A stretch of 62,353 nt of DNA. Origin: Flavobacteriales bacterium (GTDB lineage Bacteria > Bacteroidota > Bacteroidia > Flavobacteriales_D > Crocinitomicaceae). Shown piece after piece: positions 5,508 to 32,703 of this stretch (its first letter is position 1; every line of letters begins with the position of its first letter). Position numbers and translations under genes: made by a program. Location of the stretch: assembly GCA_046081565.1 (NCBI GenBank), contig JBJTWF010000148.1:1-62353 (forward strand), in the 5' to 3' direction. Under the pieces are notes generated by a model, which ran no database searches, was not told the DNA's origin, and saw nothing but the letters and a program-made list of their open reading frames with translations.

Positions 5508-5519
5508 TCGCCTTTAGGC

Positions 5520-10860: not shown

Positions 10861-11679
10861 ATGGTCCTGACAGAAATCCAAACCCTTGCCATAGAAGCCA
10901 TTATGGAGGCCTGCCACGCAGTAATGGAAATATATAGAAACCCCATCCCCTGGGAAGAAAAAAGCGACGGGTCTCCAGTAACGCAAGCTGATCTTGCCTC
11001 ATCATCCATCATTCAAGGTAAATTAAAACAAACCTCTATTCCAATTATCGAGGAAGAATCCCCACATGAAACATATCAAAAGAGGGCGCTTTGGACCCAG
11101 TGTTGGTGCGTAGACCCGTTGGATGGCACCAAAGAATTTATTAAAAAAAACGACGAGTTCTCTATCAACATTGCCCTTTTATCCACCGGTGTTCCTCTTT
11201 TCGGTGTAATTGCAATTCCCGTACAATCGAAATTAGTTTTTGGTGGGCCGGATATAGGGGCTTACGTTGCAACGTTCGACAACCAATCAACCCTGAGTGA
11301 TCCCATACGAATAATCCCTAAGCCAAACCAACAAAAGACCTTCACGATAATCACTTCCCGCAGTCACCGATCTGAAAAAACAGACGTCTACCTCTCCGCA
11401 ATTACTCCCCCCAACGTACCAACGAAAACGCTTTATAGGGGGTCCGCCATCAAGTTTGTCGATTTAGCGCTTGGCCTAGCTCAAATTTATATTAGAGATA
11501 CCCCCACCATGGAATGGGATGTGGCCGCCGGACAGGCTATATTGAGAGGTGTCGGAGGAAACGTGGTGGATATCGATAGTAAAAAAGCGCTTGTTTTCAA
11601 TAAAAAAAGCTTACTAAATCCCGGATTTATTGCAACAACTAATTTATCTTTACTTGGATGGCAAATCGGGGAATTTTAA
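10861..11679 (+). CDS. cysQ: 3'(2'),5'-bisphosphate nucleotidase CysQ / inositol-monophosphatase family
   Basis: IMPase-fold metal-binding motifs EEES, WCVDPLDGTKEF and WDVAAGQAI. 272 aa. Confidence 0.8.
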   Translation: MVLTEIQTLAIEAIMEACHAVMEIYRNPIPWEEKSDGSPVTQADLASSSIIQGKLKQTSIPIIEEESPHETYQKRALWTQCWCVDPLDGTKEFIKKNDEFSINIALLSTGVPLFGVIAIPVQSKLVFGGPDIGAYVATFDNQSTLSDPIRIIPKPNQQKTFTIITSRSHRSEKTDVYLSAITPPNVPTKTLYRGSAIKFVDLALGLAQIYIRDTPTMEWDVAAGQAILRGVGGNVVDIDSKKALVFNKKSLLNPGFIATTNLSLLGWQIGEF

Positions 11680-13118: not shown

Positions 13119-14502
13119 GTCGTTTTTAATTGGGTGTCTCATGCTCCGTGTAATTGGCTTTTCACAGACCACCAGCGGCATGCGAGACTCCCTGTTTCAT
13201 CTCTCCTTAAGCGGTAAATGCATTCCTATTTTTTCATCCGACGCATCAGACGAATTCTTATTAAAAAAGAACTCAAGGAAGTTCATTCCTCTTGTTGATT
13301 TGGCGGGAGTTTACTCAGAAAAGACATCATTTAAATCACATTTGGGAGGTCGCTTTCAGTGGCAGGGGGAATCGCTTAGTTTGTCAATGGGCGCCTTAGG
13401 TGGGATAACCAATAACCAAGGTGCACTAGTTCCCCATTGGTTCGAAAAACCTATTATCAATGAGGTGAAGGCATCTATTATGCCCGCACTTAGGTTGGCA
13501 TATAAACCAAACCCATACGTCTCTGCCCAACTCGGATTTGATCGAACGTTTTATGGAGATGGGTATCGATCTCTTTTTCTATCCGACATTGGAAAACCAT
13601 ACCCCTATGCTTCCATTCGATTTAAGGTAGGTCCCATTTCCTACCAAAACATGGCGGCATACCTTTTTGCCCCAACCTATCTTCATAAATACCAGATAAA
13701 CCACTTCCTCCATTGGAAGATTACCCAAAACCTACAGCTCAACTTCTTTGAAAGCGTGCTGTTCAATAGCGGTGATTCCACAACCAACAGAACCTTCGAT
13801 CCCTATTATTTAAACCCCTTCGTTTTTATACGCCCTCAAGAATATGCCAACGGTTCAAGTGACAACGTGTTGATGGGCATTGGCGCCTCGCTATCGCTTC
13901 GTAAGGCCAAGCTATATAGCCAACTTGTGGTCGATGACTTTCTGATTGCCTCGTTGTCTTCTGGGGGTAATTATTGGGGTAATAAATGGGGTGTTCAATT
14001 GGGATGGAAACACGCAACGTCTAAAAATCATTGGAAAATCATGAGCCGAATTGAGGGCAACCTCGTGCGGCCTTATACCTATGCCCACATAGGAAGTTCA
14101 TTAAATTATACCAACGATAACATGGTATTATCCCACCCTTTGGGTGGAAATTTTTGGGAATTATATGAATCACATATGTTTATAAAGGGTTCTTTATCCT
14201 TTTTAGTTGAGTTATCTGCTGGACAAAAAGGCTATGATTTGGATACCGTTAGTTTTGGAGGAGATGTTTTTGTTCCTTACACTAACCGGCCAAGCGATTA
14301 CGGAGTAACCCTATTACAAGGAAATAAAACCACGTTTATTTCATCAAGAGTGAAGCTTGGATTAGTGGGAAATAAAAACAACAGTATAGAAGGCTTTTTA
14401 GAATTAAACCTTCGTTATTCAAGAACAATAGATAATTCGTTTTTTCAGCTGTTTCCGCTCCTTGGAATAAGAAGTCGGGTTTTCAATGATTATCGTTTTT
14501 AA
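13108..14502 (+). CDS. Paralogue of the preceding outer-membrane beta-barrel-like protein (Wzi/RemB-like, uncertain)
   Basis: Signal peptide (CLMLRVIGFSQ). Motif FYGDGYRSLFLSD parallels IGYGTRSLFWGD of the upstream gene. Ends ...NDYRF, a C-terminal aromatic residue typical of OMPs. 11-nt overlap with the upstream gene. Confidence 0.6.
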   Translation: MHIKSFLIGCLMLRVIGFSQTTSGMRDSLFHLSLSGKCIPIFSSDASDEFLLKKNSRKFIPLVDLAGVYSEKTSFKSHLGGRFQWQGESLSLSMGALGGITNNQGALVPHWFEKPIINEVKASIMPALRLAYKPNPYVSAQLGFDRTFYGDGYRSLFLSDIGKPYPYASIRFKVGPISYQNMAAYLFAPTYLHKYQINHFLHWKITQNLQLNFFESVLFNSGDSTTNRTFDPYYLNPFVFIRPQEYANGSSDNVLMGIGASLSLRKAKLYSQLVVDDFLIASLSSGGNYWGNKWGVQLGWKHATSKNHWKIMSRIEGNLVRPYTYAHIGSSLNYTNDNMVLSHPLGGNFWELYESHMFIKGSLSFLVELSAGQKGYDLDTVSFGGDVFVPYTNRPSDYGVTLLQGNKTTFISSRVKLGLVGNKNNSIEGFLELNLRYSRTIDNSFFQLFPLLGIRSRVFNDYRF

Positions 14503-16568: not shown

Positions 16569-18053
16569 ATGAGTTCATCCGTTAAGCGACTTTTTGGCCA
16601 AACCGCCATTTATGGCCTTCCTAGCATCATTGGTCGTTTATTAAATTATTTTCTTGTTCCGCTATACACTGCCGTGTTTACCTCTCCCTCGGATTATGGC
16701 GTGCTATCGGATTTATATGCCTATGTTGCCTTTCTAGTGGTTCTGCTTCCACTGGGAATGGAAACCGCTTATTTTCGGTTTATTCAATCCCACGAGGATA
16801 AAAACAAGGTTTTTAATGCCTGCTTTTTAACCGTTTCGTTAACAAATCTTTTGTTTTTTGTGCTCATCTATTTCACCAATCCTTGGATTGCGAAATGGAT
16901 GCTTTACCCAAACCATCCTGAATACATTTTTTTAATCGGTCTAATCGTTTGTATCGACGCCCTGTCGGCGCTTCCTTTAGCTCGTTTACGGGCAGAAAAC
17001 CAAGCCAAACGGTTTGTATTAATACAGTTGTTTTCTATTGTCGTTAATGTGGTATTAAATGTTTTTTTGTTGCTTACGTATTTTGATCCTTTGCGTCCAG
17101 AAGAAGGGATTTTACTCATTCTGATTGTCAATTTAATTTCCTCCGTTATAAAATTTGCCCTAGTTTCTGATTTAATTTATTCTGTTAAATTCATTTTCGA
17201 TTGGGGATTTTCCAAAAAACTAATAGCGTATTCTTTCCCCTTGGTGATCGCCGGTTTCGCCGGTATTATAAACGAGACGCTCGATCGCGTTTTACTAAAA
17301 CAATTACTATACAACCCCGACGTTCCTGGTTCATTACACTATGCAACGGCGCAAGTTGGAATTTATAGTGCCTGTTACAAACTTGCGATGTTGGTAACCA
17401 TTTTTTTACAAGCATACCGGTATGCTGCGGAACCGTTCTTTTTCTCCCAAATGCATCAAGAGGATAAACATATGGTTTTCAAAAAAACCATGAATATATT
17501 CATCGCCGTCGTTTGTTTTGCCTTCTTATTCGTTTCCATCAACCTTGGTTTTTTTAAGTATTTCATACGAAATGAAGCCTATTATGAAGGCTTAGCCGTC
17601 GTTCCGATATTATTGATCGCAAATGTGTTTTTGGGCATTTATTACAATCAAAGCGTTTGGTATAAACTATCGAATAAAACCCTATTCGGAGCGTATATCT
17701 CCATTGGTGGCGCCTTAGTGACCATTCTGTTAAACCTGTGGTTAATTCCTTTATACGGTTATATGGCGAGCGCTTGGGCAACGCTGTTGGCCTATTTTAT
17801 TCAAATGGTTCTATCTTATTATCTTGGCAGAAGATATTATCCTATTCCATACAACACCCATAAATTTTTCCTTTATCTCGGGTCTTCTTGTTTGATTTTT
17901 TTGGTCTTCTCAGCAGTTAGGATTGGTTTAGGATTGACCATTGAGGCCTTTAATCAACCCCTACTTCTTTTTGGAAATGGGCTAATTGTACTTTTTGTGC
18001 TGATGGTTTACCGAAACGAAAAAGACCTGATCCGTCCAAACAAAATCAACTAA
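16569..18053 (+). CDS. MOP-superfamily oligosaccharide/polysaccharide flippase (Wzx-like)
   Basis: 494 aa, about 12-14 hydrophobic helices. The N-terminus LFGQTAIYGLPSIIGRLLNYFLVPLYT is typical of the polysaccharide biosynthesis protein (Wzx) family. Starts 1 nt after the crotonase stop. Confidence 0.75.
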   Translation: MSSSVKRLFGQTAIYGLPSIIGRLLNYFLVPLYTAVFTSPSDYGVLSDLYAYVAFLVVLLPLGMETAYFRFIQSHEDKNKVFNACFLTVSLTNLLFFVLIYFTNPWIAKWMLYPNHPEYIFLIGLIVCIDALSALPLARLRAENQAKRFVLIQLFSIVVNVVLNVFLLLTYFDPLRPEEGILLILIVNLISSVIKFALVSDLIYSVKFIFDWGFSKKLIAYSFPLVIAGFAGIINETLDRVLLKQLLYNPDVPGSLHYATAQVGIYSACYKLAMLVTIFLQAYRYAAEPFFFSQMHQEDKHMVFKKTMNIFIAVVCFAFLFVSINLGFFKYFIRNEAYYEGLAVVPILLIANVFLGIYYNQSVWYKLSNKTLFGAYISIGGALVTILLNLWLIPLYGYMASAWATLLAYFIQMVLSYYLGRRYYPIPYNTHKFFLYLGSSCLIFLVFSAVRIGLGLTIEAFNQPLLLFGNGLIVLFVLMVYRNEKDLIRPNKIN

Positions 18054-18844: not shown

Positions 18845-21169
18845 CTAATTTATAACCACAACCTTTCCTACTTTTCTTGATGTTCCTTCGTTATTCGCTG
18901 TCCAGAAAAGGTACACTCCCGTGGCTACTTTTGTCCCATCAAGCCTTCTTCCATCCCACACGGCGGTTCCACCGTTGGAAGTCGTTTTAAACACAAGGTT
19001 TCCTGCAATATCCGTGACTTTTACGTCCGAATCGTACCGAATTCCCTGTATCGTAATCAGGCCCTCATAATTGGGTCTCACAGGGTTGGGAAAAACTTTG
19101 ATAGAAGAATAATCTGCATCATCCCAAGAGGCATCGGATCGGTAGGATACCAGGCCTAAGTCTGTAATTATAAATAGTTCCCCGGTTTCATGATTCAAGG
19201 TTAAATCATAAATATTATTTGAAATCAATGGTGAGTTTTCCTTTGTAAATTGTTGAAGTATTTCGGATCCATCGGAGGACAGTAGGATTAAGCCAGAACT
19301 TGCTGTGGCAATCCATTTTCGATTACCCCCGTCCACTTCAATATCCGTTATATGTGTTGTCCCTAATACAAATTCCACGTTTCCTTCGAACCTTACTTTT
19401 ATTCTTTGGGCATTAAATTCGCCCGGAGAAGCATTAAAGGAACCTAAAGGGTTATATAAAACAGCAAAGCCCGCATCGGTGCCAATCCACAATTCACCAT
19501 CTAAATCAACGGCCAGGGCGGTAACGTTCATAGAGGGAAGGGCTCCGGCGAAATCCCCATTCGTTAAATTAATGGTTTTATCATCGGCGGCATTGTCGAT
19601 TGTTCCACCATGGTGATACCCAAAGAGCCCTCCAGTTTCTGAAGCAAACCAAAGGTTTTCGTCAGCATCAATTACCATTCTTGTGGTAAACTTATTCCGT
19701 GCCTCTGAACCGCAATCGAAGGCATACCAATTATCCTCTTTTGTTTTGACAACCAATGGCTTTTCGGTATATCCATTTAAAACCCAAAGGTTACCCTTTT
19801 TGTCGTAGCAAACATCGGATGCTAGGGACCACCCGTTCCCGGCTAGCGAAAGTTGAAGTTGGCTATTGGTTTCGTTGTAAACCATGCATGCGTTGTCTTT
19901 CAATACCGAAATCGGATAGGCAGAATAGGTTGCAACCGCTATTTCGTCGGTATTTCTTGGGTTGATGGACACGTCTATAAAGTCGTGAATGTCTATCCCT
20001 TGCCACGCAGCTTGATTTTCCTTGTCTTGATAACTCCAGTCCTCGTTTTCAAAAACATAGTATCCGTTGCGTAAGAAGCCCGGGCTTTTAAATTCAAGTC
20101 TTCCGCTGGCAATTGCAAGCTTGCCTTTCTGCCAATCCATAGCATAAAAATCATTTCTCGGTGGACCAGGATAAGAAATAGCCTCATAAGAATAGGCTCC
20201 AATAATGCGCATGGGGCCACTAAACTCATCCGCGATCCACTTATCCCCATTCGGCAACGAAACCATCTGGTTGGGTCGAAAAAAAACACCCAAATAAAAG
20301 GTTAAAGCGCTCTCTATTACCTGAGCATTTTGATCTAATGATAAAAGGGCACCATCAGCAAGAACATCAAGTAGGCCTTGGTGCTGTGTTAAGTTAATAA
20401 TTTCTAGTCCTGTTGAATAATACGAAACGGGTATCGCCTCTGTTGGGAGAAGTCGAAGAATCGTGTCTGAACCATAGGCCTCTGTTTTAGCAAGTACATA
20501 GGTTTCTTGTTGTACCTGTTCAATCGCGGCATATTTTCCAGAACCAAACAGAGGGACTCTCGGGTCTTGAATCCATGCCTCCGGAGCGGGCAACATGACG
20601 TCATCAACGTTACCCAAAAGCAACCGTGTTGGGGAAAGCGCATACAAAACGTTGTTGATAACCACTAGGTCAAGAATGGGCTCAGCTCCATTGGTGGGGT
20701 AATAGGTGTCTTTAATTTCATTTTTGTTGGTATTAATCAACACTATTCCGAAATCTGTGGCAACATACACGCCTTGGTTGCTTTGATAAAACCGATTAAT
20801 TCTTTTGCTTCCCGAAAGGTTGGCAAGGCGAATAGCGGGAATATTCGTAATGTTATCCCCACGAATTACATCAATGTTTCCGTTGACGTAGCCCACATAA
20901 AAAGCCTGCTGAATGGAATCATAAAATAAGGCGGAAATCAGCATGTCTGACAGGCCATTCATTTTGTTTAACAGGGCCTTTTCTTTGCTCTCGAGATGAT
21001 ATTTCAAAATTCCATTTTCATACGCCACCAGAACAAATTCTTTGTCGGACGCAATGTCTATGGCTTGTTTTGTGGCTGTATGTAGGCGCCAAGATCCCGT
21101 TTCAATTTGCGCTGAAAGGTTGTAGGCAAGAAAAAACATTGATAAAAACGAAACGAGCCTATACATCAT
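18845..21169 (-). CDS. T9SS-sorted double beta-propeller protein, PorZ-like
   Basis: Signal peptide (FLAYNLSAQ). About 650 aa of repeated propeller-blade-like segments (two-component regulator propeller type). C-terminal T9SS type-A CTD (IKVFPNPV...GVYLFWTAN...GKVVVIN). The 774-aa size and architecture match P. gingivalis PorZ as I remember it. Confidence 0.6.
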   Translation of the reverse strand: MMYRLVSFLSMFFLAYNLSAQIETGSWRLHTATKQAIDIASDKEFVLVAYENGILKYHLESKEKALLNKMNGLSDMLISALFYDSIQQAFYVGYVNGNIDVIRGDNITNIPAIRLANLSGSKRINRFYQSNQGVYVATDFGIVLINTNKNEIKDTYYPTNGAEPILDLVVINNVLYALSPTRLLLGNVDDVMLPAPEAWIQDPRVPLFGSGKYAAIEQVQQETYVLAKTEAYGSDTILRLLPTEAIPVSYYSTGLEIINLTQHQGLLDVLADGALLSLDQNAQVIESALTFYLGVFFRPNQMVSLPNGDKWIADEFSGPMRIIGAYSYEAISYPGPPRNDFYAMDWQKGKLAIASGRLEFKSPGFLRNGYYVFENEDWSYQDKENQAAWQGIDIHDFIDVSINPRNTDEIAVATYSAYPISVLKDNACMVYNETNSQLQLSLAGNGWSLASDVCYDKKGNLWVLNGYTEKPLVVKTKEDNWYAFDCGSEARNKFTTRMVIDADENLWFASETGGLFGYHHGGTIDNAADDKTINLTNGDFAGALPSMNVTALAVDLDGELWIGTDAGFAVLYNPLGSFNASPGEFNAQRIKVRFEGNVEFVLGTTHITDIEVDGGNRKWIATASSGLILLSSDGSEILQQFTKENSPLISNNIYDLTLNHETGELFIITDLGLVSYRSDASWDDADYSSIKVFPNPVRPNYEGLITIQGIRYDSDVKVTDIAGNLVFKTTSNGGTAVWDGRRLDGTKVATGVYLFWTANNEGTSRKVGKVVVIN

Positions 21170-21272
21170 GACACAAACGCTATTTAAACAAAAATATTCC
21201 TAAAAAGACGGAATTCAAAATCAAGGCACTTAATAAATCACAAAAAGCCCTTATCTTTCGAATTCAATAACC

Positions 21273-22931
21273 ATGTCTTTTTATCAACGTCATCTCTACG
21301 CCACGGGGCTATTTTTGTTTCTTGTTCCCACGGTTATTTTTACCCTTAGCTCCCTAATCCTTATGGTAAACCTGCCTCTGGGCGGTGTAATCTATCCTGT
21401 TTCCTTTATCCTTGCATTGTTTTTGGTGTTTTGGTGGGTTTTCAAAGGTGAAAAAAAAATCTCACTCAATGTCTTTCTTTTTGGGGGAATTGGAACGTTA
21501 TTCACCGTTTTTGCTCTCGGGTTATCCGGTATTTTTTATGATGTATCGTTTGATGGGCAATGGTATCACCAAGATGCCATTTTGTTTTTATCGGACGGAT
21601 GGAATCCCTTTTATGATGCCGGTATCCCTGATGGATTGGTTTCAGGAAACAACGCTAACTATATAAACCATTACCCAAAAGCCACTTGGATTTACCAAAG
21701 CGTGGTTTATCTTTTTTGGGGGAACATTGAATGGGGGAAGTCCTTACACTTCCATCTGTTGTTTTCTTTTGGTTTTTTGCTGTTCTCCTTTTTATCCCAA
21801 AAAACGGTGCTATCCGTAACACAACGCATCATACTGGTGTTAATGGCTGTTATTTCACCCATTACCCTCGGACAACTTTTTAGTTTCTATGTAGATGGAA
21901 TACTCTATTGCTTTCTGGGACTCTTTTTGCTATTCCTTCTTGACTGCGTTGTACACCATGAAAAACGATGGCCCCTCCTTATCTTATCGTTCGTTTTTTT
22001 GATCAATATAAAATTCACAGGTTTGGTTTATGCCCTTTTATTTGCGTTTGGATGTTTCGTTTACCAGACGTGGGTAGCTAAAAAATTGTCCTTAGGCCCT
22101 GTTTTTCGTTTTATCCTTATATCCATCATGGGCGTTTTTGTGTTTGGATACCCAACCTACGGTAGAAACCTAATGGAAAAAAACCATATATTTTTTCCTA
22201 TCATGGGAAAAAACAACGAAGGTCGTCAAATCGCACAAGCACAATATCCCAGTGATTTTTATGGATTAAATCGAGTTGAAAAATTCCTCAGCGCTCACCG
22301 TGCTATCCCCAATTATACTGCAGAAACTCATCCTTCCGTTCCCAAAAAAAACCTGTTTAACCCGAAATTCATTCAATCTTCCATTCCTTACTACAACAAC
22401 CATCAGCCGGTAACTATGAGTCCTTTTGGTCCTTTTGAACTTGAACTCTGGGTGTTCTTCGGGCTTTCCATGATCTTCTTTTTTCTGTTTGTGCGGGAAC
22501 GATTGATTTACTTTTCTTGTGTTTTATTTTTACTTTCCATGCTAATCCAACCTGAGTTTTGGAATTTGCGATATGCGCCACAGCTTTTGTGGTTCATTCT
22601 CTTGGTTCAAGGCGCCCTCTTAATTTCTTCCTATCGCATTGTTCGCCTATTTTCTTTGGTGTTTTGTGTTTTATTTATAACCAACGGTATAATTGCGAGT
22701 AAGGAAAATTGGCGCTGGGTCGCGAATAGAAATCAGCAATTAAATGAAACGTTATTGGAACTTTCTAAAAAAAACGTAGTAATATACCCCGGTTGGATGG
22801 GTTCATTTACATTAAAATTAAAAGACTACAATATAACCTCTTTTCCAAGCACTTCCCGTGGCGAGGGTGGCGCTGTTGAATTTTACGAAGGTGATTTTAC
22901 GGGGTGGAAGTATAAAATAGTACAAGAATGA
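21273..22931 (+). CDS. Polytopic membrane protein, GT-C-like glycosyltransferase candidate
   Basis: 552 aa and at least 10 hydrophobic helices. Long first extracytoplasmic loop rich in Asp and aromatics (YDVSFDGQWYHQDAILFLSDGWNPFYD). Small soluble C-terminal domain. ATGA overlap with the downstream UbiA-family gene. Confidence 0.5.
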   Translation: MSFYQRHLYATGLFLFLVPTVIFTLSSLILMVNLPLGGVIYPVSFILALFLVFWWVFKGEKKISLNVFLFGGIGTLFTVFALGLSGIFYDVSFDGQWYHQDAILFLSDGWNPFYDAGIPDGLVSGNNANYINHYPKATWIYQSVVYLFWGNIEWGKSLHFHLLFSFGFLLFSFLSQKTVLSVTQRIILVLMAVISPITLGQLFSFYVDGILYCFLGLFLLFLLDCVVHHEKRWPLLILSFVFLINIKFTGLVYALLFAFGCFVYQTWVAKKLSLGPVFRFILISIMGVFVFGYPTYGRNLMEKNHIFFPIMGKNNEGRQIAQAQYPSDFYGLNRVEKFLSAHRAIPNYTAETHPSVPKKNLFNPKFIQSSIPYYNNHQPVTMSPFGPFELELWVFFGLSMIFFFLFVRERLIYFSCVLFLLSMLIQPEFWNLRYAPQLLWFILLVQGALLISSYRIVRLFSLVFCVLFITNGIIASKENWRWVANRNQQLNETLLELSKKNVVIYPGWMGSFTLKLKDYNITSFPSTSRGEGGAVEFYEGDFTGWKYKIVQE

Positions 22932-23806
22932 TAACCATTTTTTCTTTATTAAGAATTAAAAGTTGGGTTAAAAATGGGTTTCTCTTGCTGCCCGCCGTTT
23001 TTTCGTTACACCTGTTTACTCCTGGGGTATTATCCTCTTTATGCATTGGCTTTCTTGCCTTTTCGCTTTCTTGTTCTTTTGTTTATATCATAAATGACAT
23101 TCAAGACCGTGAGCGAGATCAATTGCATCCTAGGAAAAAACTTCGTCCTATCGCTTCGGGTAAAGTTTCTGTACGCAGCTCCCTTTTTGCTGCCCTGGTT
23201 TGTCTGAGTATTGCTTTATTCCTTGCCTATAGCGTTCTTTCAAGCGTAGCCTTCACGCTTTTAATGCTCGGATATGTTGCCGTAAATGTTGGTTATTCGT
23301 TTGGATTGAAGAATATTCCCTTACTCGAATTGATTATTGTCTCCGTAAATTTTGTGTTACGCGTTTTAGCGGGATGTGTTATTTTAAAGGAAACCCCCTC
23401 GCATTGGATTTTGGTCGTTACCTTTTTTATGTCTCTGTTTTTAGTGGTGGTTAAAAGAAAATCCGAACTGTTGCAACTCAACATGCATGCTACTGCACAC
23501 CGAAAATCTTTGGCTTCATATACCCTTTCCTTTTTGAATGTTCTTATTTATATTTCCGCAACCGTTACCCTTACCGCTTATTTACTGTACTCCATGGACC
23601 CAGCAGTCATTCATTCCTTGGGTTCTTCGAATGTATTATATAGTTCCTTATTTGTATTACTAGGACTCATACGATACATTCAAATCAGTGAACTTTCTTT
23701 ATATGAAGGAGAGGGAGACCCTACCACCCTATTGTTTAAAGATGGGTTTCTTTTGGCAACCATTTGTGCTTGGGTCTTCTATCTTGTTTTGATTATTTAT
23801 GTCTGA
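22928..23806 (+). CDS. UbiA-family polyprenyl-phosphate phosphoribosyltransferase (decaprenyl-phosphate 5-phosphoribosyltransferase, Rv3806c-like)
   Basis: 292 aa, about 8-9 TM helices. The motif IINDIQDRERDQLHPRKKLRPIASGKVS matches the NDxxDxxxD...HPxKxxRPIAxG block that I associate with Rv3806c-type enzymes. Confidence 0.75.
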   Translation: MITIFSLLRIKSWVKNGFLLLPAVFSLHLFTPGVLSSLCIGFLAFSLSCSFVYIINDIQDRERDQLHPRKKLRPIASGKVSVRSSLFAALVCLSIALFLAYSVLSSVAFTLLMLGYVAVNVGYSFGLKNIPLLELIIVSVNFVLRVLAGCVILKETPSHWILVVTFFMSLFLVVVKRKSELLQLNMHATAHRKSLASYTLSFLNVLIYISATVTLTAYLLYSMDPAVIHSLGSSNVLYSSLFVLLGLIRYIQISELSLYEGEGDPTTLLFKDGFLLATICAWVFYLVLIIYV

Positions 23807-24419
23807 TCCGCGCGTAAACCTAGCTTTTTTTGATTTTGATGGCACCCTGTATCGTGGAGACTGTTTTGTCGATTTTTGTCTTTTTTTTTATCGTAAAAAC
23901 CCGTTAAGGTTGAGGTTTAGTTTTCATCAACTCATTTCGTTTTTCTTGTGGAAAACAGGAATAATTGATACGACTACGTTTAAATCTCGGTTCCTAATTT
24001 TCTTGCAAAAAGACTCGATGGAAAAAGTGGAGGCCGTAATAAACGACTTTTGGGCTCTCCGAAGAAGATTCCATGAGGCGGTTTTGGATGCGTTGTCTAT
24101 GGCGAGACAACAAGGATATACCTGTATCGTTGTGTCGGCTTCACCAGAAATATTGTTAAACCCTGTAAAAAACAACCTGATGCTGGATGCTGTAATCGGC
24201 ACGGAGCTCGTTTCTACCCCAAAAGGGTGGCGTATTGAAATAAACTGTAGAGGAGAGATAAAGTGGAAAAAAATCCAGGAACGTTATTCTTCCTTTTGTC
24301 TTCAAGTGGCTTATTCAGACAACCAGGACGATGAAATCATACTACAGAAAGCGATTAAAGGGTATGTGGTTCATAAGGGAACGATAATCCCATTCATGGG
24401 GACGGATGATCAACGATAA
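23799..24419 (+). CDS. HAD-IB superfamily phosphatase
   Basis: HAD motif I FFDFDGTLY, motif II VVSAS, motif IV YSDNQDDE. 8-nt overlap with the UbiA-family gene. Confidence 0.8.
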   Translation: MSDPRVNLAFFDFDGTLYRGDCFVDFCLFFYRKNPLRLRFSFHQLISFFLWKTGIIDTTTFKSRFLIFLQKDSMEKVEAVINDFWALRRRFHEAVLDALSMARQQGYTCIVVSASPEILLNPVKNNLMLDAVIGTELVSTPKGWRIEINCRGEIKWKKIQERYSSFCLQVAYSDNQDDEIILQKAIKGYVVHKGTIIPFMGTDDQR

Positions 24420-26454
24420 ATGCCGCATCCAATCGTTGTTGTTCGGTTTCAGAAACATGATTGATCTTCGCTTTTGTTTGAATATCTTTTTTCCATACTG
24501 GATCGCGATTTATTTTTAAAATAATCTTAGCTATTTCTGCTTCTCTTAGTGAATGTCGAATTGATTTTGTCGCATTTACCTTTTTCAACGATTGCTCATC
24601 TAAATAATACCAACACTCGCTCCCGGAGCGAACTAGCCTCCAAGAATCCTTGCGGCAAGAAGGGAGAATACCAAACGGTTTTAACGCGTCTAATCGGTGG
24701 TTATGAACCGCCATTTTAGTAATTGTACTGGTGTTGTTACAGTAAATAACGGGGGGCGTCCTTTCCGAAAAATCAAATTGCTGGGTTGTCCGAGCAATAA
24801 AAATTTGAGGATCAGGATTATACCAAGAGGGGACCTGGTTCAAAAACCATGTGGCGATAGGCATATGGGATAAATTTGACCAATCAAAGCGATTATGAGG
24901 GTTGTGCAACTTTATTAACCCGCCCTGTGTTAAAAGACAAAAAAGGAATATTACCCGTTGCCAACGAGTCGAATAGGTTGCTAATAGATAAAACGCATGA
25001 AATAAAAGCGGTACCGCAATCCATGTTGCGTATCGATTTACAATGGCCATCCCGTGGTTCCAATTGCTCATGGCACAAACGGTAAGGGTCATCATCAATA
25101 CGACCATTGGAATGAAATCCCAATGGGTAATCGTTTTATTTTTTAAAACCCTAAATCCTCGCTGAATTAAAAGAAAAATATAGACAAAAATCCAAAGACC
25201 GATGCCTAGGATCATTCCCTGGTTCCAATCCATAAAAAAACCATAGATGCGCTCAAGTGTAATGTTATTTACTGATAGAAAACCCGCCTCTTTTATTAGG
25301 CTTGTTTTACCGAACAAAACCCAAAAATAAATCGACGGCATGAAAGGGATTATGGATAATATCCCCAGTAAAACCATTTTTTTTGCCTCCGTTCTGCTTT
25401 CCCACCCAAGAGGAACCAACATCCATAGGAAAACAAGAAACAAGGGTTGATTTTGAAGGGTGGCAAGCCCCACAAAAACCAATGCCAACCATCGTAAGGA
25501 ATGAGTCCAAGCAATAAACCCTGACGCCAGTAAAACAAAGGTGAAAACTTCGGGATGGGTCCAACTCGAATAATAAAAAATTCCACTAAAAAACAATACC
25601 AAAAGGGATAAAAACGCAAGCTTTTTCCTTTTAAAAAGAAGAAAAAAAGCCCATACCAGAAAGGCGAACCAAAACATCGCGTTGGTATAAATAAACGCTT
25701 TTATCGGGTGGAATCCAACCCATTCAGAGACCCACCTCATGGGCGTATTTACCAAGGAATAAAAAACAAAATGATATCCATACACATCACCCGCTTGGTT
25801 TCTATAAAAACCCCCATATTCTGATCGCGTTTTTGATGCTAAAAACTGTTCTACCTCATCAAACGCTTGTTTCTTATAATTATCCTTCCACGCCTGGTGG
25901 GCTAAAAAATCTGTTTTAAACGAACGATAATCTGTTAACCGAATATCTGGAGACCCATGGTTTTTCCATGCTTCCGTCGTTAGAATATATTCTATTCCAT
26001 CTCCGGTTGGATAGGGCTCTGCTTTGTTGATATAAAACCCAAAGAGGAGAAGCAAAGCATACCGGGATGCCTTACCGATAAAGATAAACAAAAAGGTTTT
26101 TTTCCAAGGGGATCTAAAAAAACCTAATGCAACCGATAAGACGTCGCCAATAAACGGAAGCCAAGAAAGTAGGGCCATCCACGGGCCATAACGGTGGACC
26201 TTTCCTTTCCATCGTTCGATTTGTTCCTGGGATACTCCCACCCTTTTTAACCATATCGGTTTGGCTAAATATCCGATGCCATAATTCAAGAATCCTCCTA
26301 AGGTATTTCCTGCGGTTGCTACCAGCAAACAGAGCCAAGGGTTAAAAGAAAAAAGCATCAAGACAAAAAGTGCTTCTGATGCAATAGGCAAGATAGTCGC
26401 GGCTAAAAACGCGGCTAAAAACAATCCTAAATATCCCCAGGCAATCCAGTCCAT
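24394..26454 (-). CDS. Fusion protein with an N-terminal DedA/YqaA (SNARE-associated, VTT) domain and a large GT-C-like polytopic membrane domain
   Basis: The first ~140 aa (LGLFLAAFLAATILPIASEALFVLML...GNTLGGFLNYGIGY...LSWLPFIGD) look like YqaA/DedA. The remainder is ~540 aa with many TM helices. It has an acidic/aromatic loop after the DedA-like domain (YPTGDGIEYILTTEAWKNHG) that resembles the loop of the 21273 gene. Confidence 0.55.
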   Translation of the reverse strand: MDWIAWGYLGLFLAAFLAATILPIASEALFVLMLFSFNPWLCLLVATAGNTLGGFLNYGIGYLAKPIWLKRVGVSQEQIERWKGKVHRYGPWMALLSWLPFIGDVLSVALGFFRSPWKKTFLFIFIGKASRYALLLLFGFYINKAEPYPTGDGIEYILTTEAWKNHGSPDIRLTDYRSFKTDFLAHQAWKDNYKKQAFDEVEQFLASKTRSEYGGFYRNQAGDVYGYHFVFYSLVNTPMRWVSEWVGFHPIKAFIYTNAMFWFAFLVWAFFLLFKRKKLAFLSLLVLFFSGIFYYSSWTHPEVFTFVLLASGFIAWTHSLRWLALVFVGLATLQNQPLFLVFLWMLVPLGWESRTEAKKMVLLGILSIIPFMPSIYFWVLFGKTSLIKEAGFLSVNNITLERIYGFFMDWNQGMILGIGLWIFVYIFLLIQRGFRVLKNKTITHWDFIPMVVLMMTLTVCAMSNWNHGMAIVNRYATWIAVPLLFHAFYLLATYSTRWQRVIFLFCLLTQGGLIKLHNPHNRFDWSNLSHMPIATWFLNQVPSWYNPDPQIFIARTTQQFDFSERTPPVIYCNNTSTITKMAVHNHRLDALKPFGILPSCRKDSWRLVRSGSECWYYLDEQSLKKVNATKSIRHSLREAEIAKIILKINRDPVWKKDIQTKAKINHVSETEQQRLDAAFIVDHPSP

Positions 26455-26498: not shown

Positions 26499-28319
26499 TT
26501 ACTTTTTTACAAAATGCTTGGTTACTACTCCTTCTTCTGATTGAAGTTTCACAACATACATTCCGGGTGCTAAATCACTAATTGCAACTTGTTGCGCTTG
26601 AACACCGTTGTTTGGCGTGAAATTCAAGTCAGTAACTACCGCTCCTAAATGATTATAAATTGCTCCTTCAACGCTGTTCGCGCCTTTGAAGTCAGCCTTA
26701 ATGTTCAAAACATCATTCGCTGGGTTAGGATAAACAACTGCACCAATAGCCGATGTGTTTTCGTTTATCCCAATGGTAGGATTAAAATTCAAACGAACCC
26801 AAGGGGTAGAAGTCTGGTAGTACCACGTATTGTCCAGCAAGTCCAAAAAGAAAGACGTTTGAGGTACGGAAGATCCAGCATTTACAAGCTTTAATCCAGT
26901 ACCATAGGCACCAACAACCGCGAGGTATGTCTTGTTTGCCATAAGGTTTACAGGAACATTCAATGCAATCATCTTGTTTACATTTAAATCCGGTGCAGCA
27001 ACAATTACTGGATCTGATTCTGATTCGAAAACGAAATCACCGGTAGTCGGATCTATAGAATATAACTTAACGAATACCTCGGTGCCCACCGTTGTACCAT
27101 TGGCTCCTCCCAACAAACGAACATCAATGCCTTTCAATTCTTGATCGGCCCAAACATCATATAAGTTACCTGCTTCAAATCCATCTGCTCCGTTCGACGT
27201 GGACCCGGCAGGAGTTCCGTTGTCACGTGCATAAATATAGTCGTTTACACTGAACGTGGTGTTTGTAAAGGCATTGTTTGCTGGAACATCGTCCGTAGAG
27301 TCTGCGGTTAGGGTGTGAACTACGGTGTAGTTTCCTATCGCAGCGGGAGTAAACGCTGTAGAAACCGTTAACGTTGCTGTGTCAAGTGACGGAATGGTAA
27401 CGGCAGTTGATGATCCGGTAAAGGCTCCTGCGTTAACGTTAACATTATATTGGACCCCGGGTTGTGCATTTATTCCCCCATTGAACGCCTTAATTTCAAA
27501 ATCTATTGGAGCGGTTTGTGTTATTGGAATTTGATAGTAATACAACCCTGCTGTTCCCCAATATTTATCGGTTACGCTTAAATCATTGGTAGGATTGGTT
27601 ACAATCTTAACGTTATCAATGTACCACCCATAGGTAATCCAAACGTTAGGATTGGTTGCAGAATTAGGGTAGTTTGTTGTCCAGCTAAATCGAACCCAAA
27701 CGTTTCCTGGATTTGCGGGAAGGATGGTGGCTAAGTTAATCGTTTTCAGGTCTGGATTGCTGTAAGCAGAGCCACCAGAAGCCGAAAGAACTGATTTGTC
27801 TAAGTTGTCGCCTACCGTTGTCCAAGTGTTTCCATTGGTACTAATTTGAATCTCTTGTAAGTCGTTAAACCTTGCGCCGTATTGTTCGAAGGATAAGCTT
27901 ACTTGATTAGTGCCTCCTAAAGCCGTTATATTAATTGGATTCGCTGTGGTTAAGGTGTAGGTAACCGCTAAGGCTTGTGTTCCTGGGGTTACCGTTGGGT
28001 CTCCGTTCACCAATTCCGCATAGTTTCCTCCTCCGGTAGAATTTATTCCATTGGCCGAAAACCAACCATCCGAGACGTTATTGATGTTCCATCCATATTC
28101 GATCCCAGATTGACCACTATTATCTATGGTCCAATTGGCGACATTATCAAAATTATCAGACCAAAGGGTAACCCCTAAGCTTTTGCTGGATTCTAACGGT
28201 TTTTGATTGAGTTGGTGTTGTCTTGGCACCAAGTGATTTGCGTTTTGAATAAGTGGGCTTTTTTGCGCCATAGTTAGGGTGCTAAATCCCAATAGACCAA
28301 AGAGTAGTGTTCTTTTCAT
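26499..28319 (-). CDS. T9SS-sorted secreted or surface protein of unknown function (beta-rich; N-terminal region reminiscent of MAM or choice-of-anchor-J-type domains)
   Basis: Signal peptide (FSTLTMAQ). WSDNFDNVANWTIDNSG...GWNINN pattern. C-terminal CTD VYPNPANDVLNIK...GMYVVKLQSEEG..KHFVKK. Confidence 0.7.
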   Translation of the reverse strand: MKRTLLFGLLGFSTLTMAQKSPLIQNANHLVPRQHQLNQKPLESSKSLGVTLWSDNFDNVANWTIDNSGQSGIEYGWNINNVSDGWFSANGINSTGGGNYAELVNGDPTVTPGTQALAVTYTLTTANPINITALGGTNQVSLSFEQYGARFNDLQEIQISTNGNTWTTVGDNLDKSVLSASGGSAYSNPDLKTINLATILPANPGNVWVRFSWTTNYPNSATNPNVWITYGWYIDNVKIVTNPTNDLSVTDKYWGTAGLYYYQIPITQTAPIDFEIKAFNGGINAQPGVQYNVNVNAGAFTGSSTAVTIPSLDTATLTVSTAFTPAAIGNYTVVHTLTADSTDDVPANNAFTNTTFSVNDYIYARDNGTPAGSTSNGADGFEAGNLYDVWADQELKGIDVRLLGGANGTTVGTEVFVKLYSIDPTTGDFVFESESDPVIVAAPDLNVNKMIALNVPVNLMANKTYLAVVGAYGTGLKLVNAGSSVPQTSFFLDLLDNTWYYQTSTPWVRLNFNPTIGINENTSAIGAVVYPNPANDVLNIKADFKGANSVEGAIYNHLGAVVTDLNFTPNNGVQAQQVAISDLAPGMYVVKLQSEEGVVTKHFVKK

Positions 28320-31815: not shown

Positions 31816-32703
31816 ATGGAGATTTTACTGATTGGAGGAACGGGTTTTATTGGGCAGGCGGTATGCCATTTTTTTCAAGAAAAAGGCGTTCCTGTAATCG
31901 TATTAACAAGAAATCCTAGCGAAACACATCATCGGTTTTGGGACCCAATCCATAAAGAAGGAGCCTATGATTCTTTGGAAAACATCACCCATATCATCAA
32001 TGTAAACGGCGCTGGAATTGCTGAAAAACGATGGACTAAAAAACGCAAGCATGTGTTACGCACTTCGCGGGTCGAGGCAACAGAATATTTATATAAAGTA
32101 ACAAAAGAACATTGCCCTAATCTTCGTCATTATCTTGGAATTTCTGGCATCAATGCGTTTGGGTTTTCAGACCACAAGGTGTTTCATGAGGAAGACCCTA
32201 TGGGTACAGACTATTTGTCTTGCTTGGTTTCTTCGTGGGAAAAAGCACATCAATTGTTTAAAAAACGTGTGCCAACTACGATCATTAGGCTTGGGATGGT
32301 GATAGACCCGCGTGGTGGGGCCTATGAAAAGATGGCAAACCCTATTCGGCTTGGTTTTGGCGCTGTGGTAGGAAATGGCCATCAGAAGGTTCCATGGATT
32401 TCGTTATCGGATGTGGTTGGACTCCTCCATCATCTTTGCGTTGATCCTAATCCATCACCCACGTTGATTCATGGCGTGAGCAATCATTCAACCATGCACG
32501 ATATTACGCATTTCATCGCGAGACAAGAGGAAAAAAAAATTCGATTACCCAACATTCCTTCCTTCGTTATTTACCTGTTGTTCGGAAGGATGGGTCAACT
32601 TCTTACAAGATCTCTTCAGGTGCACACGGAATCCCTAATTGCGACTGGATACCCCATTAAAAACCCAACCCTAAGCTCAATACCCCATGCGAAAAAAGAC
32701 TAA
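31816..32703 (+). CDS. TIGR01777 (YfcH-like) NAD-dependent epimerase/dehydratase-family protein
   Basis: N-terminal Rossmann motif LLIGGTGFIGQAV. ~295 aa with the extra C-terminal domain typical of YfcH. Confidence 0.75.
   Translation: MEILLIGGTGFIGQAVCHFFQEKGVPVIVLTRNPSETHHRFWDPIHKEGAYDSLENITHIINVNGAGIAEKRWTKKRKHVLRTSRVEATEYLYKVTKEHCPNLRHYLGISGINAFGFSDHKVFHEEDPMGTDYLSCLVSSWEKAHQLFKKRVPTTIIRLGMVIDPRGGAYEKMANPIRLGFGAVVGNGHQKVPWISLSDVVGLLHHLCVDPNPSPTLIHGVSNHSTMHDITHFIARQEEKKIRLPNIPSFVIYLLFGRMGQLLTRSLQVHTESLIATGYPIKNPTLSSIPHAKKD

Follow-up and report, generated by a model that had tools for sequence, protein, structure and literature searches.

The DNA analyzed here, a stretch of 62,353 nucleotides (the window) from an uncultured freshwater Flavobacteriales lineage, includes four genes, named A to D, that raise the question of whether they form a pathway in which a pentose is attached to a lipid and transferred outside the cytoplasm, and of which pentose this would be. 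The four ORFs and three overlaps described in the initial annotation are present as it had located them, and the UbiA motif that it reported, NDIQDRERDQLHPRKKLRPIASG, corresponds in the translation to residues 56-78 of B. As read from the sequence, A and B overlap at ATGA (22928-22931) and B and C share 8 nt, ATGTCTGA (23799-23806); C and D converge and their 3′ ends overlap by 26 nt (24394-24419). The sole non-coding gap upstream of A-B-C, between gene A and a divergent PorZ gene, is presumed from its position to hold the promoter.

21170..21272, no strand assigned: intergenic, presumed promoter region of A-B-C
21273..22931, plus strand: gene A, 552 aa, polytopic membrane protein
22928..23806, plus strand: gene B, 292 aa, UbiA superfamily
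23799..24419, plus strand: gene C, 206 aa, HAD-IB
24394-26454, minus strand: gene D, 686 aa

The initial annotation regarded this type of pathway as uncharacterized. However, biochemical work on Citrobacter youngae published in 2024 (PMC11127046) showed that undecaprenyl-P-ribofuranose is synthesized by a UbiA-type synthase and a HAD phosphatase and is used by a GT-C enzyme without epimerization. In this study, Kelly et al. (PNAS 2024) described a ‘three-component’ mode of pentofuranose addition in Citrobacter, in which the GT-C enzyme that founded family GT136 works with a synthase-phosphatase and a flippase. ORF15 (PRP-PPPRS) yields polyprenyl-P-Ribf, which is then transferred by ORF12, the GT-C enzyme (PMC11127046); the main text of that article mentions neither Bacteroidota nor DedA. 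The four-gene module is real and appears to be a Bacteroidota variant of this previously described type of system. It has in common with the C. youngae O1 locus (ORF15 PRP-PPPRS, ORF14 flippase, ORF12 GT-C) a UbiA-type PPPRS with the pattern N-D-x-x-D-x-x-x-D, a HAD phosphoribose phosphatase and a GT-C-fold transferase; without an epimerase, its expected donor is polyprenyl-P-Ribf. On the other hand, the phosphatase of the module is a separate gene, an arrangement that PMC11127046 notes just once, for a phage; two unrelated GT-C-fold proteins are encoded where Citrobacter has one; a MATE, SMR or GtrA flippase is missing, and one of the transferases carries a fused YqaA-type DedA domain instead; and the module, in its freshwater Flavobacteriales host, is outside any recognizable polysaccharide, O-antigen or capsule cluster.

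We consider it likely that the module is the Bacteroidota form of ‘three-component’ extracytoplasmic pentofuranosylation. At the cytoplasmic face, B would move 5-phosphoribose from PRPP onto polyprenyl phosphate, presumably undecaprenyl-P, and C would take off the 5-phosphate to give polyprenyl-P-ribofuranose, which would be used unchanged because no epimerase is linked to the module. After this donor crosses the inner membrane, A and the GT136-like module of D would each add ribofuranose to an envelope glycan in the periplasm; one of them may prime and the other extend, or each may have an acceptor of its own.

The identity of the sugar depends on the epimerase. A Pfam scan of the 42 ORFs of at least 150 aa in the window detected no FAD_binding_4/ALO protein or DprE2-like SDR, in agreement with the initial annotation, which had found no DprE1/E2 there. 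The DprE1/E2-like pair of a Bacteroidota member, Chondrinema, had no tblastn match in the window; these queries do recover the Rhizobium pair (1.9e-123 and 4.8e-57). The donor would stop at polyprenyl-P-ribofuranose, the absence of DprE1/E2-like genes covering the 62-kb window and 79 D-family loci, none of which has DprE1/E2-like genes within 10 kb. A less likely reading, to which we give a small but appreciable chance, is that the same module is served by an epimerase located elsewhere that turns polyprenyl-P-ribose into polyprenyl-P-arabinofuranose or -xylofuranose before transfer. The candidates would be DprE1/E2 homologs outside the window, the visible genome being 62 kb, or a YfcH-like NAD-dependent epimerase-family gene (31816-32703; Epimerase and DUF1731 domains) found 5.4 kb from D and syntenic in one relative (L001). 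Such conversions have precedents: in Citrobacter O2 a GalE-like SDR (ORF13) converts undP-Ribf to undP-Xylf, and ORF12 takes both donors (PMC11127046), and Bacteroidota are known to have Araf-type clusters, as in a Chondrinema plasmid with PPPRS, FAD oxidoreductase, SDR and GT39 genes. However, wherever an epimerase is used, both in the systems seen and in all the candidates of Kelly et al. (PMC11127046), its genes are inside the cluster, which, like the result for the 79 loci, argues against a distant enzyme. As for the YfcH-like gene, four unrelated genes separate it from D, and the annotations of the distant D loci L002, L003, L087 and L088 and of the A locus L086 include no Epimerase-family gene. 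The Araf-type clusters themselves (Chondrinema litorale plasmid NZ_CP111066.1 and Rhizobium sp. Kim5 pRetKim5c) include a homologous PPPRS, that of Chondrinema being 39.7% identical to B, with GT-C-type partners alongside, but they differ from the module in having adjacent genes for a DprE1-like FAD oxidoreductase and a DprE2-like SDR and in using partners of the GT39, GT87 or DUF2723 type; the A- and D-family profiles had no match in them.

The ribofuranose donor would be used by A and D, for which the following features are relevant.

21537..21581, plus strand: motif YDVSFDGQWYHQDAI of A, acidic, with invariant D90, D94 and Y98; candidate catalytic site
24394..26037, minus strand: C-terminal module of D (residues 140-686), GT-C fold, proposed ribofuranosyltransferase (Foldseek, Duganella homolog, residue pattern)
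25987..26019, minus strand: EPYPTGDGIEY of D (D152, E155, Y156), candidate catalytic loop and fusion junction (alignments A1, A3, A4)

The initial annotation had called both large membrane proteins GT-C-like, and the top Foldseek matches of their AlphaFold models are GT-C enzymes, almost to the exclusion of other proteins, with weak E values (about 1e-3 to 1e-2) and low TM-scores (0.24-0.46). The model of A (pLDDT 92.9, pTM 0.93) best matched Pmt4, AftA, STT3, AftB, ALG12, ALG9, EmbB/C, DPY19, PimE and AftD (probability up to 1.00, E 2.6e-3 and weaker, TM 0.35-0.46), nearly all of its top 16 matches being GT-C enzymes; that of D best matched ALG9, ArnT, PglB and AftB. At the sequence level, A had no match in Pfam or NCBIfam searches and its profile matched no PDB chain, the transferase part of D had no Pfam or NCBIfam family and the D profile no PDB chain, and no similarity of A or D to Emb or Aft proteins was found. 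D90, D94 and Y98 of A are invariant columns of a 49-sequence alignment (A2), and motif YDVSFDGQWYHQDAI is located in the first large loop predicted to lie in the periplasm, which comes after the predicted TM3 and is poor in Lys and Arg. We propose, from its modeled fold, that A is a second pentofuranosyltransferase. In D, residues D152, E155, Y156, H228, R474 and Y475 are invariant or nearly so in the alignments and, by order and spacing rather than by sequence alignment, parallel D31, E34, Y35, H106, R349 and Y350 of ORF12, which are functionally tested GT136 residues; the less conserved H300 and E302 parallel ORF12 H174 and E176, which are dispensable (PMC11127046). This pattern suggests that the C-terminal module of D probably belongs to GT136.

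Gene linkage was analyzed in relatives whose loci had 5 kb or more of flanking sequence on each side. In agreement with the synteny expected from the initial annotation, B and C adjoin D in 20/20 close relatives, and A is kept in 19 of them. A B homolog is located within 5 kb of D in all 20 close loci, in 17 of 21 more distant Bacteroidota loci, where the gene order is different, and in 5 of 11 loci of the Oxalobacteraceae group. Both the D-UbiA-HAD and the A-UbiA-HAD linkages recur in unrelated neighborhoods and in other phyla: D-UbiA-(MTase)-HAD is a co-directional block in Bacteroidia, and a HAD-UbiA/SMR/D arrangement is found in Oxalobacteraceae. In Duganella a Wzm/Wzt O-antigen cluster includes, in this order, a HAD-UbiA fusion, a small SMR/EamA-like transporter and the D homolog, which takes the position of the GT-C enzyme in a canonical three-component locus. 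A-UbiA-HAD-GtrA and UbiA-A are found in unrelated polysaccharide clusters, the distant A homologs lying beside B-like UbiA and HAD genes (with GtrA once) or beside PRPP synthetase in ABC-transporter polysaccharide clusters. The arrangement of the module is not due to chance. There is little probability that B and C make a lipid-linked pentose of which A, D or both are not the transferases; these would then be conserved neighbors with a different lipid-linked substrate, serving for instance as polymerases, as ligases or as transferases of a different polyprenyl-P-sugar, and the true user of the donor would be elsewhere. The close relatives share the whole neighborhood (PorZ, S41 peptidase, aminotransferase and others), and therefore synteny within the near clade alone proves nothing; furthermore, no UbiA gene is found near the D homolog in 4/21 other Bacteroidota and 6/11 loci of the Oxalobacteraceae group or near one A homolog (L085), and the fold matches are statistically weak. 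Against this reading, both families are independently linked to UbiA/HAD in different gene orders and phyla, and the conserved residues of D match tested GT136 residues.

The donor itself would be made by B and C, whose key motifs are as follows.

23093..23119, plus strand: NDIQDRERD of B (N56, D57, D60, D64), Mg2+/PRPP-binding motif, aligned with Rv3806c N73, D74, D77 and D81
23832..23846, plus strand: DFDGT of C (D12, D14), HAD motif I nucleophile, from the translation

The initial annotation had assigned B to the UbiA family and C to HAD-IB, and had likened B to Rv3806c and not to quinone or heme prenyltransferases, all of which was borne out. B matched PF01040 (2.4e-27), and its match to PDB 8J8J (Rv3806c) is full length (residues 6-283; E 5.7e-34), other UbiA enzymes matching at 6e-8 or worse. 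NCBIfam decaprenyl-phosphate phosphoribosyltransferase (DPPRS) models gave 7.8e-63, 9.5e-58 and 1.1e-39, compared with 3e-12 or worse for models of the UbiA, MenA, CyoE and ChlG types. The four motif residues are needed in Rv3806c (PMC10994848), as are N247, D248, D251 and D255 in Citrobacter ORF15 (PMC11127046). PRPP is contacted in Rv3806c by K28, Y70, N73, D77, Q135 and Y138 (PMC10994848); in the 8J8J alignment B is identical at five of these (K15, Y53, N56, D60, Y123) and has Asn in place of Q135. By these sequence comparisons, B is a polyprenyl-phosphate 5-phosphoribosyltransferase (PPPRS) of the Rv3806c/ORF15-C type within the UbiA superfamily. It is very improbable that B is an ordinary UbiA-superfamily prenyltransferase with an aromatic or other small acceptor, in a cluster unrelated to PRPP or pentoses: although it falls just under the curated cut-off of every NCBIfam DPPRS equivalog model (212.6 bits against 234 for NF008977, 195.6 against 207 for NF008978) and Flavobacteria have UbiA-family members whose substrate is not known (PMC9235831), the E values of the DPPRS models and of all aromatic, heme and chlorophyll prenyltransferase models differ by more than 50 orders of magnitude, the alignment to Rv3806c covers the full length, the residues that contact the ribose and 5′-phosphate of PRPP (K28, Y70, N73, Y138) are conserved, and B is constantly partnered with a PRP-like HAD phosphatase. 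This partner, C, matched PF12710 (1.8e-21) and TIGR01488 (HAD-IB; 60.6 bits, cut-off 45). Its family profile matched (hhalign probability 96.8%, E 2.7e-10) the HAD domain of HAD-UbiA fusions, in which Proteobacteria join a phosphoribose-phosphatase domain to PPPRS-type enzymes; an N-terminal match to NF006088 points to the same homology, and the intact DFDGT of C aligns with DLDGT of those fused domains. C also shares 34% identity with the HAD domain of a protein of 1033 aa adjoining PRPP synthetase. From these similarities we propose that C is a polyprenyl-P-ribose-5-phosphate phosphatase of the PRP type.

The mycobacterial decaprenyl-P-arabinose pathway (Rv3806c, Rv3807c, DprE1/DprE2, Rv3789, Emb/Aft) has the same first enzyme and the same logic, in which a lipid-P-pentose is synthesized internally and then serves GT-C enzymes on the outside, and its AftA, AftB, EmbB/C and AftD are among the structural matches of A. 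On the other hand, the module lacks DprE1/E2 and a homolog of the GtrA-type Rv3789, its phosphatase is a HAD-IB protein and not Rv3807c, described as unrelated to the HAD-family PRPs (PMC11127046), and its lipid is presumably C55 and not C50.

The description of D as GT-C-like held for its C-terminal module but had missed an N-terminal domain.

26038..26454, minus strand: N-terminal domain of D (residues 1-139), VTT/DedA, YqaA (COG1238) type (PF09335, YqaA identity)

Residues 26-139 matched PF09335 (4.6e-13), and within the DedA superfamily, which includes the UndP flippases of the UptA/YghB type (COG0586) and YqaA (COG1238), the domain shares 40% identity with E. coli YqaA (E 2e-25, compared with 1e-3 for YghB). 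EPYPTGDGIEY directly follows the last DedA helix, which stands in for the transferase's own TM1; this fusion with loss of TM1 was found in the window, P0001, P0002 and L006. In relatives DedA is a separate 143-aa gene overlapping that of the transferase, and among the close relatives it shows translational coupling to D in 19 of 20. The association is limited to one family-level clade, no DedA gene being found near the more distant D loci. Other DedA proteins have been linked to the recycling of polyprenyl phosphate and, by this route, to supplying polyprenyl-P-sugars to GT-C enzymes, for instance in Ara4N/ArnT-dependent polymyxin resistance (PMC10127716; PMC9876793). COG1238 proteins have no assigned function, are reportedly 99% single-domain, unlike D, and are argued to be unlikely flippases of UndP (PMC10127716; PMC9876793), since their second re-entrant helix is without phosphate-binding basic residues (PMC10127716). 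The DedA domain of D is, by sequence, a candidate polyprenyl-phosphate(-sugar) translocase. It would occupy the place of the MATE, SMR or GtrA flippase of other systems and would most likely move the lipid carrier, taking the loaded donor out or the spent polyprenyl-P released by the transferase back. The unusual part of the module is this fusion of an orphan-type DedA lipid-transporter domain to a transferase.

Read directly from the sequence, the module consists of four ORFs, whose positions and three overlaps agree with those reported in the initial annotation:

21273-22931, plus strand: gene A, an ORF of 552 aa coding for a large polytopic protein
22928-23806, plus strand: gene B, an ORF of 292 aa coding for a UbiA-family protein that contains NDIQDRERDQLHPRKKLRPIASG
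23799-24419, plus strand: gene C, an ORF of 206 aa coding for a HAD-IB protein
24394-26454, minus strand: gene D, an ORF of 686 aa coding for a second large polytopic protein

A and B overlap by the sequence ATGA (22928-22931), B and C by 8 nt (23799-23806), and the 3′ ends of C and D overlap convergently by 26 nt (24394-24419). The content of the window is that of a Bacteroidota genome, including a PorZ gene (18845-21169, minus strand), which is divergent from A, and several T9SS C-terminal-domain (CTD) proteins. The module is flanked by the PorZ gene, a T9SS CTD cargo gene located 44 nt upstream of D (26499-28319, minus strand), thioredoxin-like genes and a nitrilase-family gene. An origin of the module in a mobile element or prophage was considered and rejected: its GC content (0.38-0.40) is unremarkable, and neither tRNA genes nor Rfam families at the gathering threshold were found across the whole 62-kb window. 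Elsewhere in the window, a plus-strand gene (39703-42651) codes for a 982-aa protein in which an N-acetylmuramoyl-L-alanine amidase domain (Amidase_2, 1.9e-25) is joined to a CUB domain (PF00431, 2e-16); CUB domains are mainly metazoan extracellular modules. A 1122-aa ORF without a Pfam match (46458-49826, minus strand) lies in the stretch with the lowest GC content (0.34-0.38) and the strongest T skew of the window (46-50 kb), which may be foreign or fast-evolving DNA. Two overlapping plus-strand ORFs of 486 and 464 aa (11658-13118 and 13108-14502) belong to no Pfam family, and an MFS sugar transporter with a C-terminal DUF6814 domain (4.2e-18) is encoded at 50267-51898 on the minus strand.

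A pathway of the same kind has been described in Citrobacter youngae O1 (Kelly, Duong, Nothof, Lowary and Whitfield, PNAS 2024; PMC11127046). In that pentofuranose system ORF15, a fusion of a HAD phosphoribose phosphatase (PRP) and an Rv3806c-like synthase, converts PRPP to polyprenyl-P-ribofuranose, the small transporter ORF14 is the proposed flippase of this compound, and alpha-Ribf is added to the O antigen in the periplasm by ORF12, a GT-C enzyme and the founder of family GT136. Such systems may or may not include an epimerase: a GalE-like ORF13 leads to Xylf and DprE1/E2 to Araf. Further candidates were reported in Proteobacteria, Bacillus, Rathayibacter and one phage; the main text mentions neither Bacteroidota nor DedA (PMC11127046). 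The pathway that the initial annotation proposed, a polyprenyl-P-ribofuranose donor used by two GT-C-like proteins, was thus right in kind, and its description as uncharacterised no longer holds, since this type of pathway was shown in Citrobacter in 2024. The module in the window has the same set of polyprenyl-phosphate phosphoribosyltransferase (PPPRS), PRP and GT-C enzymes as the three-component system of Citrobacter, with B, C, A and D adjacent and the linkage recurring in other lineages, but it lacks a MATE, SMR or GtrA protein and has a YqaA-type DedA domain instead. It also sits outside any recognisable polysaccharide cluster, and so differs from a three-component system in location. 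Overall, the module is real, and the analysis supports the interpretation in the initial annotation. At the cytoplasmic face, B and C would make polyprenyl-P-ribofuranose, which would itself be the donor, there being no linked epimerase, and A and the transferase module of D would draw on it in the periplasm. The functional slot of the missing flippase would be taken by the DedA domain, either to export the donor or to recycle the polyprenyl-P freed by the transferase to which it is fused.

The sugar could differ if an epimerase encoded outside the module turned it into Araf or Xylf, an alternative that we consider unlikely. Pfam revealed neither a DprE1-type FAD_binding_4/ALO protein nor a DprE2-like SDR among the 42 window ORFs of at least 150 aa, and the sole epimerase-family gene in the window codes for a YfcH-like protein with Epimerase and DUF1731 domains (31816-32703). 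The DprE1/E2-like pair of a Chondrinema litorale plasmid, which directly follows the phosphoribosyltransferase gene there, was used as query in tblastn and phmmer searches, which gave no match either in the window or at 79 related loci. These queries detect the DprE1/E2 pair of Rhizobium at 1.9e-123 and 4.8e-57, and the negative result is therefore meaningful; the absence of a DprE1/E2-type epimerase from the window, noted already from the sequence, is borne out by both the Pfam scan and tblastn. In this the module departs from the mycobacterial decaprenyl-P-arabinose pathway, which employs DprE1 (an FAD oxidase) and DprE2 (an SDR reductase), and polyprenyl-P-ribofuranose remains the proposed donor. 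In two clusters of the Araf type the synthase gene is directly followed by DprE1-like and DprE2-like genes (Chondrinema litorale plasmid, L004 10004-13047; Rhizobium sp. Kim5 plasmid, L096 8896-16157), together with genes for GT39, GT87 or hypothetical membrane proteins and, in Rhizobium, GtrA. The Chondrinema cluster is an epimerase-containing version that is also present in Bacteroidota. The GT-C genes of the PPPRS loci of B. multivorans, Rhizobium, Chondrinema and Prevotella are not of the D or A family.

It could also be that A and/or D are mere neighbours that act on another substrate, a reading that appears quite improbable. A scan of one genome per species yielded 79 D-family loci. Among those that extend 5 kb or more on each side, D has a B homologue no farther than 5 kb away in 20 of 20 close relatives, 17 of 21 other Bacteroidota and 5 of 11 members of the Oxalobacteraceae group. 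The presence of A beside B, C and D is restricted to the close clade (19/20), the more distant Bacteroidota often having two D paralogues instead; within this clade the expected synteny of the module genes is thus confirmed. In Duganella sp. LX20W a HAD-UbiA fusion, a 113-aa SMR/EamA-like transporter and a D homologue are encoded one after the other inside a Wzm/Wzt O-antigen cluster, which is a textbook three-component locus, and in Bacteroidia MAGs a co-directional D-UbiA-methyltransferase-HAD block is found in a quite different neighbourhood. Distant homologues of A (23-30% identical) occur in several settings: one, within a Wzm/Wzt polysaccharide cluster, precedes genes for a B-like UbiA protein (34% identical), an acyltransferase, a HAD protein and GtrA; another comes directly after a B-like UbiA gene in a different polysaccharide cluster; and a third is accompanied by PRPP synthetase, Wzm/Wzt and a 1033-aa protein that contains a HAD domain. 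A fourth has no UbiA gene nearby. These neighbourhoods provide independent support for A, and we retain the reading in which A and D are partners of the synthase.

Two further arrangements were observed among the related loci. The methyltransferase of the Bacteroidia relatives, a 214-aa SAM-dependent protein, is always encoded between UbiA and HAD (L003 8258-8902; L087 11612-12256; L088 4003-4647), has no counterpart in the window, and suggests that the pentose donor of those lineages may be methylated. Beside these clusters lie three or four Por_Secre_tail genes (L003 537-4844; L087 1813-6838). On the Azospirillum lipoferum plasmid AZO_p3 (L094 6516-9838) a 968-aa fusion of a polytopic membrane domain, HAD and UbiA is followed by a small EamA transporter, so that one or two genes encode almost an entire pentofuranose system; on comparison, this fusion was rejected as a D- or A-like protein.

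The B protein matches PF01040 at 2.4e-27 and three decaprenyl-phosphate phosphoribosyltransferase equivalogs of NCBIfam at 7.8e-63 (NF008977), 9.5e-58 (NF008978) and 1.1e-39, with bit scores for the first two (212.6 and 195.6) slightly short of their equivalog cut-offs (234 and 207); the HAD-UbiA fusion model matches it at 1.2e-47. Its best PDB match is Rv3806c (8J8J; 5.7e-34, full length), followed by 4TQ3 (6e-8) and 4OD4 (2e-3). That B is an ordinary prenyltransferase is therefore hardly credible, as the NCBIfam models of quinone, haem and chlorophyll prenyltransferases score 3e-12 or worse and both the NCBIfam and the PDB scores group it, as the initial annotation had proposed, with Rv3806c-type enzymes. 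In the structure of Rv3806c, PRPP and Mg2+ are contacted by K28, Y70, N73, D77, Q135 and Y138 (PMC10994848). The aligned residues of B in the 8J8J alignment are K15, Y53, N56, D60, N120 and Y123, the sole change being Gln-to-Asn (N120), and the Mg2+/pyrophosphate motif N-D-x-x-D-x-x-x-D, with roles known from ORF15 mutants, is kept. Since B keeps the residues that hold the 5′-phosphate, PRPP is argued to be the substrate. The sequence argues for B as an Rv3806c-type PPPRS with a predicted activity of PRPP-dependent polyprenyl-P-5-phosphoribose formation. A B homologue (34% identical, 99% coverage) was also found at 4874-5740 of a phage contig from human faeces, the unannotated 6.6-kb record MT837543.1, which may represent a seroconversion module comparable to the phage example of Kelly et al.

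The C protein has the features of a PRP-type HAD phosphatase, namely the HAD fold, an intact nucleophile motif (DFDGT, residues 12-16) conforming to DxDxT, and homology to a PRP domain fused to a PPPRS. It matches PF12710 at 1.8e-21, TIGR01488 (HAD-IB) above the cut-off, and NF006088 with its N-terminal part at 2.7e-5. A profile of 49 C-family sequences aligned with the HAD domain at the N-terminus of nine HAD-UbiA fusions from Oxalobacteraceae with an hhalign probability of 96.8% (E 2.7e-10), and C is 34% identical to the HAD domain of the 1033-aa protein encoded beside PRPP synthetase.

The C-terminal module of D has no match in Pfam (to E 10), NCBIfam or PDB sequence profiles. In the AlphaFold model of D (overall pLDDT 80.5, exceeding 85 in most of the transferase module, low in the DedA domain) the top four Foldseek matches, ALG9, ArnT, PglB and AftB, are all GT-C enzymes with probabilities of 1.00, 0.94, 0.69 and 0.72, the E-values being just 7e-3 to 0.27 and the TM-scores 0.24-0.36. 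The model thus points to a GT-C fold for D more weakly than for A, and we rank genomic context as stronger evidence than fold for this module. The earlier description of D as GT-C-like would hold for its C-terminal module, in view of these weak Foldseek matches, and had missed the N-terminal DedA domain. The D family is large: clustered at 50% identity, it has 2,159 representatives (E <= 1e-3), and its carriers include the cultivable genera Massilia, Duganella and Pseudoduganella. Its conserved residues, invariant or nearly so, are D152, E155, Y156, H228, R474 and Y475, with H300 and E302 less conserved; in ORF12 the essential or important residues are D31, E34, Y35, H106, R349 and Y350, while H174 and E176 are conserved but dispensable (PMC11127046). 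When the alignment columns are compared with the published residue numbers, the spacing in the D family versus ORF12 is +3, +1, +76 versus +75, +72 versus +68, +2, +172 versus +173, and +1. Unfused D homologues, in which the residues are D36, E39, Y40, H112, R358 and Y359, fall within 5-10 residues of the ORF12 numbering. This agreement in residue order and spacing is taken as strong but indirect evidence for the transferase module as a probable GT136 relative.

Other searches with D were less informative. A tblastn search of plasmids with the Duganella D homologue and a D-profile scan of viral contigs gave no match, and when 20 representatives with lengths near 650 aa were looked up by cluster, Pseudoduganella was the only informative name. 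The NCBIfam match of D to the AZOBR_p60025 family (E 0.0017) was treated as noise because five other D-family members do not reproduce it. No relation to the PMT_2 profile was found with hhalign, and D and A were rejected as paralogues (hhalign probability 6%).

The A protein likewise received no family annotation from Pfam (E to 10), NCBIfam or PDB sequence profiles. Its AlphaFold model (pLDDT 92.9, pTM 0.93) has GT-C proteins as nearly all of its top 16 Foldseek matches (Pmt4, AftA, STT3, AftB, ALG12, ALG9, Pmt1-Pmt2, EmbB, EmbC and DPY19), with GPI-transamidase subunit U interspersed among them and PimE and AftD lower; probabilities reach 1.00, with E-values of 2.6e-3 to 0.3 and TM-scores of 0.3-0.46. 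D90, D94 and Y98 are invariant and lie in the predicted periplasmic first large loop, so that the model shows two features of GT-C enzymes, the fold and a conserved acidic position in this extracytoplasmic loop. Sequence support is marginal: one distant member matches PMT_2 at 7.7e-4, and hhalign against a small PMT_2 profile gives a co-linear alignment with a probability of 12%, below significance. The predicted fold thus agrees with the GT-C-like assignment that A had received, at E 2.6e-3 at best.

Residues 26-139 of D form a VTT/DedA domain (PF09335, 4.6e-13). With 40% identity to YqaA of E. coli (E 2e-25) and a match to YghB at E 1e-3 only, this domain is placed in the COG1238 subfamily; a 98%-identical protein carries the JGI name membrane protein YqaA. 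COG1238 has been described as a group without assigned function, 99% single-domain, and argued not to flip UndP (PMC10127716). YqaA-type DedA proteins are reported to be essential in several Pseudomonas species, and a search for later literature assigning a function to COG1238 found none. The single-domain rule is broken in the window, in two D homologues (P0001 and P0002) and at locus L006, where DedA is fused to a transferase module of 546 aa. Among 84 D homologues the fusion occurs only in proteins 98% and 70% identical to D. In the other relatives a separate 143-aa DedA gene overlaps with its end the start of a transferase gene of roughly 575 aa, an arrangement seen in 19/20 close loci and exemplified by L001 (9580-10011 and 10001-11734). 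Comparison of the junctions shows that the separate transferase starts with its own transmembrane helix, followed by EPYxTGDGIEY, and that the fused proteins lack this helix, the last helix of DedA (...GKASRYALLLLFGFYI) leading directly into NKAEPYPTGDGIEY. All the invariant residues are kept in the two fused lineages, which are 70% identical, and the fusion is therefore taken to be functional. It implies that the C-terminus of DedA and the first loop of the transferase would be on the same, periplasmic side.

No MATE, SMR or GtrA flippase was found by Pfam in the module or, window-wide, among ORFs from 150 aa upwards, a cut-off above the size range of SMR and GtrA proteins, and homologues of the SMR-like protein of Duganella are absent from the window and from every Bacteroidota locus. 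The Wzx-like gene (16569-18053) was rejected as the flippase, being part of a generally conserved neighbourhood and unlinked to B or D in distant loci. A tentative and rather doubtful proposal is that YqaA-type DedA proteins are translocases of polyprenyl-phosphate or its sugar derivatives that dock onto GT-C enzymes, and that here one was first translationally coupled and later fused to such an enzyme, replacing the MATE, SMR or GtrA flippase. In one operon of E. coli K-12 (NC_000913.3; L090 6513-7504), yqaB, which codes for a sugar phosphatase of the HAD family, is followed and overlapped by yqaA, the gene of the COG1238 DedA protein, a combination reminiscent of the pairing of HAD and YqaA-type DedA in the window.

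With respect to known systems, the phylum, the split phosphatase and a second, unannotated GT-C-fold family are new, and so is a YqaA-type DedA, now part of the transferase, as a putative replacement of the usual flippase. The pentofuranose pathway of 2024 is in this way extended to Bacteroidota, in the form of abundant, uncultured freshwater Flavobacteriales. The A and D families, two large unannotated families of membrane proteins with no Pfam or NCBIfam model, are recurrent partners of PPPRS and could therefore be annotated as probable GT-C pentofuranosyltransferases, and the DedA fusion gives COG1238/YqaA a concrete, testable functional context. The T9SS genes beside the module and beside the clusters of Bacteroidia relatives are only suggestive as a clue to the acceptor because such genes are common in the phylum; one possibility is that the T9SS attachment machinery encoded next to the module (PorZ) uses the ribofuranosylated product as its envelope glycan. 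The module predicts that these bacteria would have a so far unsought, ribofuranose-containing envelope glycan.
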